Part shown: piece after piece, positions 2,782 through 40,945 of the stretch
Numbering within the stretch: position 1 is the first letter of the stretch
Layout of the letters: every line of letters begins with the position of its first letter
Assembly: GCA_964479005.1 (NCBI GenBank)
Contig: CAYZJA010000001.1
Coordinates: 80,642-144,641, forward strand
Reading direction: 5' to 3'
Source: an uncultured Candidatus Saccharibacteria bacterium
GTDB lineage: Bacteria; Patescibacteriota; Minisyncoccia; UBA6257
DNA: 64,000 nucleotides
Translations under genes and position numbers: made by a program
The notes under the pieces: generated by a model
Told to the model about the DNA's origin: nothing
Databases searched by the model: none
The model's input: the letters and a program-made list of their open reading frames with translations, nothing else

Positions 2782-3060
2782 ATGGCAGAAGTTATTAAAA
2801 AAAATGGAATGAAAGAACCATTTGATCCTGAAAAAATTAAAAAATCAATTGCTGGTGCTGCTCAACAGGCTGATGTCCCAGAAGAGAGAAAAGACGAAGT
2901 AGTATATGAAGTGGCAGGAACAGTAATCCCTATGTTTGAAGGTAAAGAGGAAATTGATACAAGTGATATTAAGAAAGCTATTCTTAGTGAGTTGGATAGG
3001 GTTGAACCGGCTGTAGCTAGTGCTTGGAGAAAATATGAGGAAGGTAAAAGGAAAGTTTAA
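2782..3060 (+). CDS. stand-alone ATP-cone domain protein
   Basis: VIKKNGMKEPFDPEKIKKSI start is typical of ATP-cone domains. Extended -10 tggtataat at 2732-2740. Confidence 0.7.
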   Translation: MAEVIKKNGMKEPFDPEKIKKSIAGAAQQADVPEERKDEVVYEVAGTVIPMFEGKEEIDTSDIKKAILSELDRVEPAVASAWRKYEEGKRKV

Positions 3061-3075
3061 TAAAGAAGGATGAAA

Positions 3076-3098
3076 GGCGTCCCAATGGGGCGCTTTTC
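3076..3098 (+). terminator. intrinsic terminator after the ATP-cone gene
   Basis: ggcgtccc/ggggcgc stem, 3-nt loop, then tttt. Confidence 0.6.
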
Positions 3099-3257
3099 AA
3101 TTTAGGTAAAAAAGAAATTAAAGTAATCTTTATTATCTATTACTTTTTCTACTTTTTAATTCCTTTATTAGCTAAGATATTAATTATATTATATACTTAT
3201 ATATAATTTTAATAAACTAATCTTTATAAAAAGCTAAAAATTAAGGGAGAATTTATT

Positions 3258-3721: not shown

Positions 3722-3943
3722 ATGAATAATAAAATCTTAAAAGCCCTAAGAGAAGATTTAATTGGGGAATTAGGGGCTATTAATCAATATCAGGAGCATA
3801 TTGATGAAATTGATGATGAAGAGGCCAAAAAAGTATTAAGTCATATTAGAGATGATGAAAAAGAGCATGTCGCTGAGTTAATTAAGATAATTAGAAAATT
3901 AGATACTACACAGGAAGAAAAGTTCCAGAAAGAAGAGCTCTAA
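3722..3943 (+). CDS. small ferritin-like (EncFtn/rubrerythrin-like) protein
   Basis: ELGAINQYQEHI...HIRDDEKEHVAEL (E..H / ExxH di-iron-type motifs). Internal ATG 3722 avoids overlap with the 3534..3698 ORF. Confidence 0.55.
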   Translation: MNNKILKALREDLIGELGAINQYQEHIDEIDDEEAKKVLSHIRDDEKEHVAELIKIIRKLDTTQEEKFQKEEL

Positions 3944-3948
3944 ATCAT

Positions 3949-4239
3949 ATGGTAGGAAAATCTGAAAAATATTGGTCTAAAGAAGTTACTTTAAAGAGTC
4001 GCGCTTTAGTCTTAGAAGAGGGTGTTTTTACTTGGCAAGATCCAAAACATATTGCTCAATCGCTGAAAAAATCAGCTGAAGAAAGTACTGAGCGAAAGGG
4101 AACACCGCTTCAATCAGCGATGTCAATGCTTAATTTTTATATTAACCGCGCTGGTAAAAACCTTGATTCAAAGCAACGCAAGATTTTGGAACAAGCCAAA
4201 AAAGAATTGAGAATAGTTTTTGGAAAAAATAAAGAATAA
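3949..4239 (+). CDS. DUF3175 family protein
   Basis: ALVLEEGVFTW...IAQSLKKSAEES...SAMSMLNFYINRAGKNL...AKKELRIVFG matches the recalled DUF3175 consensus. Confidence 0.65.
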   Translation: MVGKSEKYWSKEVTLKSRALVLEEGVFTWQDPKHIAQSLKKSAEESTERKGTPLQSAMSMLNFYINRAGKNLDSKQRKILEQAKKELRIVFGKNKE

Positions 4240-8225: not shown

Positions 8226-9434
8226 ATGGATTTTGTAGATAAAAACAAGCCATTGGCTGATAGAATGAGACCAGACTCTCTGGGTGATTTTTTAGGTCAG
8301 GAAGAACTTGTTGGGGAAGGAAAACTATTAAGGCAGGCAATTGAATCTGATAAAGTCCCTTCAATGATTTTTTGGGGACCTCCAGGAAGTGGTAAAACCA
8401 CCTTGGCTTATATTATTGTCAAACAAACTAAATCTGAATTTAGACGGATGAGCGCTGTTTCCAGCGGAATAAAAGATTTAAGAGAAACTGTAAAACAGGC
8501 AGAAGAAAACAAAAAATTAGGAAAAAGGACAATTTTATTTATTGATGAAATTCATCGTTGGAATAAAGCTCAGCAGGACGCATTGCTTCCTCATATTGAA
8601 CAAGGATTGATAATACTTATTGGGGCTACAACAGAAAATCCCAGTTTTGAAGTTATAGGGGCATTACTTTCCCGTTGTAGGGTTTTTGTTTTAAAACAGC
8701 TCAATAAATCTCAGATTTCAGAGATTATTAAAAGAGCGCTGAAAGATAAGAAAAAAGGATTAGGCAAATTAGGCATAAAAATAGATAATGAAATAATTGA
8801 TACTATTTCAGAGATGAGCAATGGGGATGCTAGAATTGCTCTTAATGTTCTTGAATATGCGTCTTCTATTTCAAATGAAATCACATTAGATCTTGTAAAA
8901 GACGCTTTTCAGAAATCCAATTTGTTTTATGATAAAAATGGTGAAGAACATTATAATATAATTTCAGCATTACACAAATCAATGCGTGGATCTGATGCTA
9001 ATGCCGCTTTGTATTGGTTAGCAAGAATGTTGGAAGCAGGTGAGGACCCTTTGTATGTAGCTAGAAGAATTGTACGGTTTGCTTCAGAAGATATAGGTTT
9101 ATCTAATTCTCAGGCATTACAACAAGCTGTTACTGCTTATCAGGCTTGTCATTTTATAGGAATGCCAGAATGTAATGTTATATTAGCCCAGGCAGTTGTT
9201 TATATGGCTAAATGTAAAAAATCAAATGATTTATACGTTGCTTATAAAAAGGCCGCTGAAGATGTGAGGAAATATGGAAATTTGCCAGTGCCTTTGCATA
9301 TTCGTAATGCCCCGACAAAATTAATGGAGGATTTAAAATATGGTAAAGGATATAAATATAGCCCTGATTATGATTACAAAGAAAATCAAGAATATTTACC
9401 AAAAGAATTAAAAGATAAAAAGTATTTAAAATAA
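8226..9434 (+). CDS. rarA: replication-associated recombination protein A (AAA+ ATPase)
   Basis: PLADRMRP...GPPGSGKTT (Walker A), FIDEIHR, GDARIALN, ARRIVRFASEDIG. Confidence 0.92.
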   Translation: MDFVDKNKPLADRMRPDSLGDFLGQEELVGEGKLLRQAIESDKVPSMIFWGPPGSGKTTLAYIIVKQTKSEFRRMSAVSSGIKDLRETVKQAEENKKLGKRTILFIDEIHRWNKAQQDALLPHIEQGLIILIGATTENPSFEVIGALLSRCRVFVLKQLNKSQISEIIKRALKDKKKGLGKLGIKIDNEIIDTISEMSNGDARIALNVLEYASSISNEITLDLVKDAFQKSNLFYDKNGEEHYNIISALHKSMRGSDANAALYWLARMLEAGEDPLYVARRIVRFASEDIGLSNSQALQQAVTAYQACHFIGMPECNVILAQAVVYMAKCKKSNDLYVAYKKAAEDVRKYGNLPVPLHIRNAPTKLMEDLKYGKGYKYSPDYDYKENQEYLPKELKDKKYLK

Positions 9435-9474
9435 AAATCCTCTCATTCCTTTTTTGTAGAAATAAGAGGATTTT
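9434..9474. terminator. bidirectional hairpin between convergent rarA and the acyltransferase gene
   Basis: aaaatcctct / agaggatttt 10-bp stem with A/T runs on both sides. Confidence 0.55.
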
Positions 9475-10189
9475 AAATTTTGTCTGCCATGTTTAAGAGT
9501 TCTTCAATTATGGCTTCTCTTGTTTCCTTTTTGCTTTCTTTATTATCAAGCATTTTTTCCAAATCCTCAAGAGAAATATGGTCACCAATTTTTACTTTAA
9601 TTCTTACTTTTCGGAGTAAGTAACCAATCCAATCCCCATCTGGTTTTCCATAAGGACCTTCCGCTTCAATTCTGAGAGGGAAAACAGCGATTTTTTGATT
9701 AGTTGTTTTTTCTGTTTGTTCGATAACCAGACTAACTAATCCCCCGACTCTTTTGTCTTTTGGGACTACTGTTCCCTCAGGGAAGATAACTATACTGACA
9801 CCCTGCTTTATAAGACTGATCATTTCTCTAATAGTGTCCCTTTTTGTATTTTTTTGATTGATAAAGATAATATAAGGGCTTAAACAAAGGCATTTGAAAA
9901 GCGTTCTTAAGTTATCTTTAGCAACATATCTTGTTGTGCTATACAGAAAGATATGTCGAAACTGAAGTTTCCAAAAAGCAGCTGCCAGAAAAACCGGATC
10001 CCAACAACCGAAGTGGCGAGCTACAAAAATAGAACCGAGATTATTCCGTTTTTGCCAGAGAGAGATTTTCTTTTGACCATATACCCGCACTCCGAAGAAA
10101 ATTAGAGAAAGTAAAAAGCACAATAATCCGTAGACTTGATAAATCCAAGCATAAACAATTTTCAAAGAGCTTGATTTCATTTCTATCAC
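9473..10189 (-). CDS. lysophospholipid (1-acyl-sn-glycerol-3-phosphate) acyltransferase-like protein
   Basis: HFGCWDP (H(X)4D acyltransferase motif) and FPEGT motif, with an N-terminal TM segment. Confidence 0.75.
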   Translation of the reverse strand: MIEMKSSSLKIVYAWIYQVYGLLCFLLSLIFFGVRVYGQKKISLWQKRNNLGSIFVARHFGCWDPVFLAAAFWKLQFRHIFLYSTTRYVAKDNLRTLFKCLCLSPYIIFINQKNTKRDTIREMISLIKQGVSIVIFPEGTVVPKDKRVGGLVSLVIEQTEKTTNQKIAVFPLRIEAEGPYGKPDGDWIGYLLRKVRIKVKIGDHISLEDLEKMLDNKESKKETREAIIEELLNMADKI

Positions 10190-10344
10190 CTCCTAAAGTG
10201 ATTATTAATTATTTATAAAACTATACAATTAACCAAGATAGATGTCAACTGGCATGCTTTAGGAAAAATATCCTGAGATTCCAGTAATAACCGTTAGCCT
10301 AAAAGAAACTAAAAATTCAATAGAGAGGGGAATCTTAGAACTAC

Positions 10345-10373
10345 TTGACAAGAGCAAGGAACTATGCTAACAT
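10345..10373 (+). promoter_or_regulatory. sigma70-type promoter (TTGACA-17-TAACAT, TGn-extended)
   Basis: ttgaca agagcaaggaactatgc taacat. Confidence 0.5.
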
Positions 10374-10379
10374 AAATGT

Positions 10380-10629
10380 AGTACATTTTGAGAATAAATT
10401 GAGAATACAGAGAGTCCTTGGTTTTATTAAAAGCTCTAAGATAGAGTTTTATGAGATAATAGGGTTATCCAGATAACCTAAAGAAATATCTCAATATTGA
10501 TAAACTAGCTAGAATGTAGCAATTACCGCAACAATTAAATAAGTTGTAATTGAAGAAGCGAGGACTCTTAATTAATCGGCGGTGTCAGGTTAGTCAGGAA
10601 AAAGGAACTAATCTGATACCGCCTTTTTT
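10380..10629 (+). ncRNA. ~250-nt structured RNA of unknown class ending in a strong intrinsic terminator (candidate riboswitch/leader of the antiporter gene, or an sRNA)
   Basis: No ORF in the 487-bp gap. Long-range pair agagtcct/aggactct encloses hairpins tgagata..tatctca (with ggttat/ataacc inside) and caattac..gtaattg. 17-bp terminator stem 10578-10623 followed by tttttt. Confidence 0.45.
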
Positions 10630-10676
10630 CTTTGTCAAAAAATTGATAAGATATAATAGATCTGAAAATATTAAAT

Positions 10677-11645
10677 ATGTTTATAATATATAGCTTAATT
10701 TTTATAACCTCTTGCGTTGCACTTTATTTTTCAGGCAATTGGCTCATTGATGGGTTAAAAAGAATTGGTAGATTTTTACGTTGGAGGGAATTTATCATTG
10801 CTTTTTTCGTTATGGCTTTTGCAGGGTCTTTGCCAAATCTTTTTGTAGGAATCAGTTCAGCTCTTCATAAAGTTCCGCAACTCTCTTTTGGTGATATTGT
10901 TGGAGGTAATTTAATTGATTTAACATTGGCTGTGGCTTTAGCTGTTTTAATTGGTGGCAATGCTATTCCTACCAAGGGCAAGATTTTAGAGAGAAGCGCT
11001 CTTTTTACGACTTTTGTCGCCATTTTACCCCTGCTTTTAATATGGGACGGCGTATTGGCAAGAGGTGATGGATTAATACTACTTTTCGTTTTTGTTTTTT
11101 ATATCTTTTGGCTCGTTTTAAATAAAGAAAGATTCAGAGAATTTTCCGGAGATGAAGAAAAACAAATGCCAAGTATTTTAAAAGAATTCAAGGTTTTTAT
11201 AAAAGATATTGGGTTAATTCTTTTGTCTTTTATTTTGCTTTTATTAGCAGCAGAGGGCATGGTACAAAGCGCTAAATTTTTTGCTGTGGCTTTGAATATT
11301 TCCTTGCCTATTATTGGGATTTTAATTGTAGGATTAGGTAATACTTTGCCGGAAATTCGTTTTGCTGTTGCGTCGGCTAAAGCTGGGAAAACAGAAATGA
11401 TTTTAGGAAATTTAATGGGCGCTGTTATTATGCCTGCTACTTTGGTTTTAGGCACAGTCGCTTTGATTAGTCCGATTGTAATTCCCAGTTTTACGCCTTT
11501 TGCTGTTGCAAGAGTTTTTTTGATAATTTCAGCAGTAACTTTTTATATCTTTACAAGAAGATATAGAAAGATTACAAAGAAAGAGGCGATAATTCTGCTT
11601 TTACTTTATGTTGCTTTTGTCGTAATTGAAATTTTAATAAGATAG
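10677..11645 (+). CDS. Ca2+/Na+ antiporter (CaCA, YrbG-type)
   Basis: About 10 TM segments. Two alpha-repeat motifs: GSLPNL...GDIVGGNLIDLTL and GLGNTLPEI...GNLMGAVI. Confidence 0.85.
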   Translation: MFIIYSLIFITSCVALYFSGNWLIDGLKRIGRFLRWREFIIAFFVMAFAGSLPNLFVGISSALHKVPQLSFGDIVGGNLIDLTLAVALAVLIGGNAIPTKGKILERSALFTTFVAILPLLLIWDGVLARGDGLILLFVFVFYIFWLVLNKERFREFSGDEEKQMPSILKEFKVFIKDIGLILLSFILLLLAAEGMVQSAKFFAVALNISLPIIGILIVGLGNTLPEIRFAVASAKAGKTEMILGNLMGAVIMPATLVLGTVALISPIVIPSFTPFAVARVFLIISAVTFYIFTRRYRKITKKEAIILLLLYVAFVVIEILIR

Positions 11646-11646
11646 C

Positions 11647-11675
11647 TTGACAAAACAAGGAAAAGGATATATAAT
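11647..11675 (+). promoter_or_regulatory. consensus promoter TTGACA-17-TATAAT
   Basis: ttgaca aaacaaggaaaaggata tataat, upstream of the 11777 gene. Confidence 0.6.
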
Positions 11676-11776
11676 CGGGGTAGTTATGGAGAAGATTGAG
11701 TTGCACCTTTACATTTTAAAAGATAAAAAAGATTAAAATATAAGAAAGATTAGAATATAAAAAGGAGGTATTGAAA

Positions 11777-12361
11777 ATGAAAAAGTTATTATTAATACTA
11801 ATGATGATTGTTTTGGTGGCTTTTGCTTTAATGATCCTTGTTTTTCCTGTAGAGAGTATGTATACTGCCCTAGATTCTGAACACGAGATACCTGAAACTA
11901 TTTTGATAAGTAAATTAGGCATAGAGGTATCATACCAATATTGGTATGATACAAAAGAGGGTATAATGAAAGTAGAATTTGTAACCTATATAGATGAGGA
12001 TGATCAAACATCGTGTGCGCAGATTGTTGATGCTGAGGTAGGAGATACCTTCACTGGGATTTCCGGAAGAACCTATGTACTACAAGAACAAACAACGCTT
12101 ACTCAGGCACAAATACAATATCTGACTCATAAGGATATTGTAGTTGTAGGTGAGTGGGTGCCGGTAGATGAAGCTAGTGATAGTGGAGGAAGTGAAGGTA
12201 CTAGTAGTATAGGTATTTCTACTCTGGGGCCATATTATTTTATAGAAGGTGGCGTCACATATAAATATTATATAGGATACATTCCGCCTCCACCTCCTAT
12301 TACTGAAGTTGATGAAGCTGTCGATGGAGGATGGATTGTAACATACTTTCAGCAGAATTAA
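11777..12361 (+). CDS. secreted/membrane-anchored hypothetical protein
   Basis: Signal-like N-terminus KKLLLILMMIVLVAFALMIL. ATG 11777 sits behind a strong SD (aaaggaggt). PPPPP tract near the C-terminus. Confidence 0.6.
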   Translation: MKKLLLILMMIVLVAFALMILVFPVESMYTALDSEHEIPETILISKLGIEVSYQYWYDTKEGIMKVEFVTYIDEDDQTSCAQIVDAEVGDTFTGISGRTYVLQEQTTLTQAQIQYLTHKDIVVVGEWVPVDEASDSGGSEGTSSIGISTLGPYYFIEGGVTYKYYIGYIPPPPPITEVDEAVDGGWIVTYFQQN

Positions 12362-40517: not shown

Positions 40518-40524
40518 ATCTATT

Positions 40525-40945
40525 GACGATTGAACCTATAAGCCGAATTCTGTATCCTGTTAAACAGGACGATAGTCATTTATCTAGCCCTGAAATTACT
40601 CTCAGGGTCAAGCGGCCACTTTCTGACAAATGTCAGAACACGAGCCTTGCACCCAGTAAGGATTTAGCCGTTTCATTCTTGAAATTGCTTTCAAGACTCA
40701 CCCTAATTAAAAAATAATTAGGGTGTTTTGAACTTTTCAGTTCAAAACGTCTCTGTTCGCACCTCTATTCCAGTTGTAAATCCGTCATTAGCGTTACCGC
40801 TAAGAGGCAAAAACTGGAGCGATAGCTGTTAGCTATTACCTTTTACCAACTTTGTTTTAGGCAAAATTGGTGGTGTTCGGACTTTCCTCCCCGCCTAAGT
40901 TTTGCGAACAAAATTTTGGCGGGGTAACTACCCAGTTCAATCGAG
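40525..40945 (-). ncRNA. rnpB: RNase P RNA, bacterial type A
   Basis: The minus strand reads ggcggggaggaaagtccgaacacc (P4 5' strand), ggtgcgaacagagacg, ggctaaatcc..gggtgcaaggc, and acagaattcggcttatagg (P4 3' strand). P1 is cgattgaac/gttcaatcg. Confidence 0.93.

Follow-up and report, generated by a model that had tools for sequence, protein, structure and literature searches.

The window, a 64,000-nucleotide stretch of one contig from an uncultured Candidatus Saccharibacteria bacterium, contains a 487-bp gap (10190-10676) with a minus-strand acyltransferase gene on one side and a gene for a CaCA-family Na+/Ca2+ exchanger on the other. A first-pass annotation had proposed that this gap encodes a riboswitch or a small RNA (sRNA), and the question is therefore whether the RNA belongs to the antiporter gene as its leader or constitutes a gene of its own.

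Layout and predicted fold of the window copy

The promoter, the nested helices, the terminator with its T6 and the distance of 47 nt between the end of the T6 and the antiporter ATG (10677), on which that proposal had been built, are all present. The features of the locus are as follows.

9473-10189, minus strand: acyltransferase gene (PlsC-like; PF01553)
10345..10373, plus strand: RNA promoter, with the -35 box TTGACA at 10345-10350, a 17-nt spacer and TAACAT at 10368-10373
10380..10409, plus strand: purine-rich 5' leader, its start placed near 10380 from the position of the -10 box
10410-10420, 10421 and 10422-25, plus strand: P1 5' strand, bulged G and P1b UUUU, which fold with 10554-10569 as partner
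10430..10450, plus strand: P2 hairpin, 9 bp, AAAGCUCUA-AGA-UAGAGUUUU
10452..10493, plus strand: P3, with a conserved inner helix GGGUUAU/AUAACCU (10462-68 / 10473-79)
10520..10552, plus strand: P4 (tentative), CAAUUAC 10520-26 / GUAAUUG 10546-52, around the loop motif AAUUAAAUAAG (consensus AAAAUUGAAUAAG)
10554-57, 10558 and 10559-69, plus strand: P1b 3' strand AGAA, bulged G and P1 3' strand CGAGGACUCUU
10570..10577, plus strand: A/U-rich linker AAUUAAUC from P1 to the terminator, conserved in 5/6 sequences in the alignment
10578..10629, plus strand: intrinsic terminator, a 46-nt hairpin (10578-10623, about 17 bp, -28 kcal/mol) followed by U6 (10624-10629)
10637..10657, plus strand: promoter-like motif AAAAAATTGATAAGATATAAT, TG-a-TAAGAT overlapping TATAAT, outside the RNA and ahead of the downstream gene
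10677..11645, plus strand: CaCA-family Na+/Ca2+ exchanger gene, 322 aa (PF01699, E = 8e-45), neighbour of the RNA

The RNA promoter scored 10/12 in a promoter scan, plus a TG at 10365-66 that makes its -10 box an extended one (TG-c-TAACAT, 10365-73). The predicted transcript is about 250 nt long (258 nt as folded) and measures 200-260 nt in the homologues described below, in the alignments of which the leader is 10-20 nt shorter than that of the window. The window leader contains an 11-nt tandem duplication (ttgagaataaa / ttgagaataca, 10389-10410) that makes it longer and was seen in this genome only.

The minimum-free-energy fold computed with RNAfold recovered the helices of the first-pass annotation, among them the long-range pair agagtcct (10411-10418) / aggactct (10561-10568) and the ggttat-ccag-ataacc hairpin (10463-78) inside the tgagata/tatctca helix. 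The latter, the outer helix of P3 (UGAGAUA/UAUCUCA, 10452-58 / 10487-93), occurs in the window only, with a partial counterpart in L003, and the inner helix of P3 is followed by the conserved motif AAAGAAAUAU (10480-89), which reads (A)AAGARAUAU across homologues. The 258-nt transcript had a folding z-score of -6.54 relative to 200 dinucleotide shuffles; the z-score was -5.32 for the 168-nt core without the terminator and -3.99 for the opposite strand.

Consistently with the earlier view that the gap holds no credible ORF, the only two ORFs overlapping the region start with TTG and encode 43 and 47 aa, and both frames are broken in homologues by indels that are not multiples of three. The ATGs inside the transcript meet a stop 1-2 codons later, and neither the ORF list nor the homologue alignment revealed a conserved ORF in the RNA region. 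The failure to match the RNA to a known class was likewise borne out: in a scan against Rfam (4227 families) the RNA had no match at the gathering threshold in the whole window, nor at E ≤ 10 in the region and the five homologous loci, with the Mn2+, Mg2+, Na+, Li+ and NiCo riboswitches, 6S, SRP, tmRNA and RNase P among the families whose covariance models gave no match to it at E ≤ 10. Elsewhere in the window (40523-40943, minus strand), a bacterial RNase P RNA of class A scored only 110 bits, the gathering threshold being 100, and extends over 421 nt where the model has 367 positions, suggesting that this RNase P RNA is divergent and carries insertions.

Homologues and covariation of the helices

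We collected homologues by three routes. An antiporter-anchored scan of GTDB species genomes yielded 80 loci, in three of which (L003, L002 and L005) the RNA was identified by sequence search and reading; L204 was added through contigs carrying homologues of the upstream MgsA/RarA protein; and a metagenome scan with a promoter-plus-P1 pattern brought up 21 loci, 4 of them real, with L224 as the sole new variant. The family thus comprises six distinct sequences, the window and five further variants, from one narrow Parcubacteria/Paceibacteria clade in which the MgsA proteins of RNA-carrying genomes are 91-94% identical. The nearest loci come from MAGs labelled Saccharibacteria, Nealsonbacteria, Pacebacteria or Patescibacteria. 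The homologue variants are:

L003, with L201-203
L002, with L229
L005, with L225
L204, with L205 and L230
L224

Searches with nhmmer, using a single sequence as well as profiles, found no member outside the six variants, either among the 80 antiporter loci or in the other loci fetched, and the covariance model R1 gave no additional true matches, its best extra match (L031, 27 bits) being rejected as it sits within a 725-aa ORF. Four different patterns produced only chance matches in IMG/VR, and blastn against phage and plasmid records returned nothing similar. The RNA is present in a single copy in the window (filters off) and in one copy per locus, with no extra copies found. With its default filters, cmsearch missed the true 142.6-bit match (10402-10578) when the whole 64-kb window was searched, and the same match was reported for a 3-kb sub-region or with the filters off; because a true match was dropped in this way, default-filter negatives on large A/T-rich inputs are to be read as weak evidence.

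All six sequences share one order of elements: promoter, leader, P1 of 11 bp, bulged G, P1b of 4 bp, P2 of 9 bp and P3, which is a G-rich hairpin in every homologue. On the 3' side of P3, all six continue with the (A)AAGARAUAU motif, a variable segment, the linker UAAUUAAU and a hairpin plus U-tract terminator, which lies in the same place throughout and whose stem sequences are unrelated. The promoter (CTTGACAA and TGCTA) is invariant in the five homologues of the alignment and is present in the sixth, L224, too.

The helices were assessed on this set of six distinct sequences from a single clade. In P1/P1b, all 15/15 pairs are formed in 6/6 sequences, 6 of the pairs showing compensatory double changes, in an unfitted MAFFT/CM alignment. 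P2 has compensatory changes in 8/9 pairs across the six sequences, and the four inner pairs of P3 are 100% paired, 3 of them with compensatory changes; both helices were extracted by hand since MAFFT mis-registers them, so that these counts are biased toward structure, a bias of which the P1 result is free. Taken together, 99.4% of the 168 cells of P1, P2 and P3 are paired, with compensatory changes in 17/28 pairs. No column shuffle out of 500 (0/500) attained any of the observed P1-P3 measures, and when the partners were slid by 1-3 columns as a control, only 37-67% of the cells paired and 0-4 pairs were compensatory. The helices also include 12 G·U cells, which would make A·C mismatches on the opposite strand, and the selected structure is therefore that of an RNA on the plus strand.

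By inspection, P4 is a helix of differing sequence, 6-7 bp long, around the same AAAAUUGAAUAAG loop motif in 5/6 sequences, and is absent in L003. Pairing of CCAAGAG (J3/4) with the 5' strand of P1 was inspected as well and rejected, as it showed no covariation. In L003 (~3740-3958) and L005 (~2869-3135), 10 nt of the leader, AAGAAAAAAG, form an exact complement of the terminator U-tail and could pair the transcript ends; as a family feature this pairing was dropped, the other four sequences being no better than shuffled controls.

Identity among homologues is only 55-64% in the RNA core, compared with 82-91% at the DNA level for the flanking genes, and this difference argues that pairing is actively maintained. 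Primary sequence thus drifts at a roughly neutral rate while pairing is kept, and the conserved positions are nucleotides of junctions and loops, namely CUUGGUUUUAU, (A)AAGARAUAU, AAAAUUGAAUAAG and UAAUUAAU.

The variable gap and the readings of the RNA

The gap between mgsA and the antiporter gene (8226-10677 in the window) is an indel hot spot, with six arrangements among very close relatives:

Nothing: L004, L216
RNA only: L003
Acyltransferase and RNA: the window
RNA and a GHMP-kinase (ispE-like) gene: L002, L204, L224
Acyltransferase, RNA and kinase: L005
Kinase only: L001, L206-L215, L220

The gene that follows the RNA is the GHMP kinase in 4/6 lineages (L002, L005, L204, L224) and the antiporter in 2, and the RNA is always oriented toward the operon with the antiporter, directly or after ispE. 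The same gene order without the RNA was found in L001, L004, L206-L217, L219 and L220; in L217 and L219 (MgsA 86% identical) the kinase gene begins 25 nt after mgsA, and in a sister clade (L245-L248, MgsA about 81% identical) the antiporter gene begins 7-28 nt after mgsA, in both cases without the RNA. L001 retains an orphaned -35 box, joined by a microhomology deletion to the ribosome-binding site of the kinase gene, from which we conclude that the RNA was lost there. The RNA is accordingly a lineage-specific, repeatedly lost insertion in a hot spot behind mgsA/rarA, and by gene order it is not tied to the antiporter gene.

Some further features of these gaps deserve mention. In the window, a hairpin of 17 bp, flanked on either side by A/T runs (9434-9474), lies between the convergent mgsA (plus strand) and acyltransferase (minus strand) genes and looks like a bidirectional terminator. 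In L218 (5210-5936, MgsA 85% identical), the gap holds a 139-aa ORF without a Pfam match, with spacers of 137 and 172 nt, and was not matched by the sRNA model.

Between the terminator and the next start codon, the motif AAAAyTGATArrATATAAT is nearly invariant in all six sequences, and in the window a site of the promoter scan (10643-10672) overlaps this putative promoter motif. In L001 and L002 the same motif immediately precedes the antiporter, with no RNA before that gene. We also observed it ahead of both the ispE-like gene and the antiporter (L001/L002 ~3955-3985; L002 ~3125-3145), and its recurrence suggests a duplicated or lineage-typical extended -10 promoter with no clear -35 box. Past the antiporter, 2 nt after its stop codon, a perfect 12/12 sigma-70 consensus (TTGACA-17-TATAAT, 11647-11675, plus strand) lies about 95 nt upstream of an ORF without a Pfam match (11771-12361), and the 125-nt gap could correspond to a long 5' UTR or to another small transcript.

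In our judgement the region is probably a standalone gene for a structured sRNA, transcribed independently, restricted to its lineage, fast-evolving and dispensable. It displays the features of an sRNA gene: a promoter and a terminator of its own that are conserved in position, non-coding sequence and a covarying secondary structure. As modelled, a sigma-70-type extended -10 promoter would give rise to a transcript of about 250 nt, with predicted ends at ~10380 and ~10629, in whose core the 15-bp P1/P1b would close P2, P3, the variable segment and the probable P4; an A/U-rich linker would follow, and a strong intrinsic terminator would end the transcript. We infer that such an RNA would act in trans and not on the downstream gene. 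Because conservation sits in the junctions and loops while helix sequences drift, the folded shape would be what a partner recognises, the partner being a protein or, possibly, a small ligand or (by way of the P4 loop) another RNA, and a simple linear antisense seed is less likely. Scanned for duplexes with 131 translation-initiation regions of the window, the conserved motifs gave only weak A/U-rich duplexes as candidate targets. Since the RNA was lost in close relatives it is dispensable, and its function would be accessory and non-essential.

A more specific proposal, in which the RNA would represent an undescribed class of folded regulatory or sensor RNAs of ultra-small CPR bacteria, acting in trans through a four-way-junction pocket that binds a protein or small ligand, and in which its fast turnover and patchiness would stem from accessory duties in conflicts between symbiont and host or with phages and not from housekeeping, seems to us unlikely.

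That the RNA is cargo of the variable mgsA-antiporter gap and serves in conflicts with phages, hosts or other strains, or that it was horizontally acquired, we regard as decidedly improbable. Such an origin would explain fast evolution, seen in a core of 55-64% identity between flanks of 82-91%, and the patchy presence in six gap configurations among genomes with MgsA proteins of 91-94% identity. However, phage and plasmid records contained nothing similar and IMG/VR no true match, no defence gene is adjacent, and when filled and empty loci were read no repeats or target-site duplication were noticed around what is a single copy in the window; the orphaned -35 box of L001 moreover points to deletion and not to excision. 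A mobile element or MITE was rejected on similar grounds, namely the single copy and the imprecise empty site of L001, where the -35 box was kept and a microhomology deletion is seen.

The riboswitch reading, in which the core would be an ion or metabolite aptamer and the terminator would attenuate the antiporter or the ispE-antiporter operon, is in our estimate very unlikely. It draws on the order of promoter, structured domain, terminator and same-strand gene in all six loci, on the antiporter always lying downstream (directly or after ispE) and on the aptamer-like pattern of conserved junction nucleotides with covarying helices. The association with the antiporter gene does not hold, however. 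The fold is not kept upstream of orthologous antiporters, the very observation that the first-pass annotation had named as counting against its candidate, and the adjacent gene is the GHMP kinase in 4/6 lineages; upstream gaps are only 7-36 nt in L001, L206-L217, L219 and L245-L248, the ORF-free DNA upstream is shorter than 80 nt in at least 60 of the 72 antiporter homologues for which sufficient upstream sequence was available, and the four non-family loci with a gap of more than 150 nt gave no match to the RNA model with the filters off.

Nor do the six sequences contain a conserved antiterminator or expression platform, as judged by duplexes against shuffled controls: in 5/6, the 5' arm of the terminator formed no better duplex with upstream sequence than shuffles did, and the best duplexes fell at inconsistent positions. 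The alternative pairing of ataacct with aggttag, which had been suggested as an alternative involving the 5' arm of the terminator, exists as 6 bp in the window and is not conserved. Terminator stems are unrelated in sequence among homologues, an 8-nt linker separates P1 from the terminator so that the two do not overlap, the nearly invariant promoter-like motif intervenes between terminator and start codon and occurs also where the RNA is absent, and no Rfam riboswitch matched. Of the original proposal, then, the structured RNA and its sRNA option stood, with promoter and terminator conserved and helices covarying, and the riboswitch layout found no support. The case is a caution that calling a riboswitch from layout alone can mislead, since here the order looks like a textbook example and RNA and transporter are only neighbours.

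Finally, it is extremely improbable that there is no functional RNA and that the region holds DNA-level palindromes (a protein-binding or recombination site, or a decayed element) or a mere mgsA terminator: the region does lie directly behind mgsA, itself without a terminator of its own, in L002, L003, L204 and L224, and the P1 strand AAGAGCUCUU is itself palindromic in three sequences, but three separate helices covary, the 12 G·U cells fit pairing of a plus-strand RNA only, the promoter is strong, conserved and the RNA's own, and in the window and L005 mgsA and the RNA are kept apart by the acyltransferase gene and by the bidirectional terminator (9434-9474).

Relation to known RNAs and significance

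Independently transcribed, intrinsically terminated structured sRNAs, either protein-binding or of unknown function, are known from bacteria, among them 6S RNA, the Y/YrlA RNAs and the raiA-motif RNA. The standalone sRNA gene that we favour resembles these in having its own promoter, its own Rho-independent terminator, a length of 150-250 nt, a closing helix and no ORF, as well as covarying helices and conserved junction and loop nucleotides. It differs from 6S RNA, which is a rod with a central bubble, in its multi-branch junction, and from the Y/YrlA RNAs in that no Ro/Rsr gene adjoins it; unlike all of these, it matches no Rfam model, is dispensable and is represented by six variants in one Paceibacteria clade.

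Cation-responsive riboswitches upstream of transporters, such as the Mn2+ yybP-ykoY, Mg2+ M-box, Na+ DUF1646 motif and Li+ nhaA-I riboswitches, are represented in Rfam. Like them, the present RNA combines a multi-helix domain with a terminator on the same strand upstream of a cation transporter (in the window and L003); in contrast to them, it gives no match at E ≤ 10, its link to the transporter is not conserved, it has no antiterminator and a promoter-like motif intervenes. It also recalls sRNAs that are derived from 3' UTRs or share a terminator with a gene, in that the RNA of four lineages lies 25-30 nt past the mgsA stop codon and gives mgsA its first terminator. The conserved -35 box and extended -10 promoter of its own set it apart from that type, as do, in the window and L005, the opposite-strand gene and bidirectional terminator that stand between mgsA and the RNA.

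CPR/Patescibacteria genomes are sub-megabase and have little space for non-essential sequence, and to our knowledge few non-coding RNAs past the universal ones have been described for these bacteria; full-text searches of the literature found no described CPR RNA like the present one. The practical importance of the family is limited by its confinement to one clade and its dispensability. Because its helices are kept by compensatory change while the sequence drifts almost neutrally, it is a credible new RNA family for CPR/Patescibacteria, of a known general kind (an orphan structured sRNA), which would add a covariation-supported RNA of narrow distribution from a poorly explored phylum.
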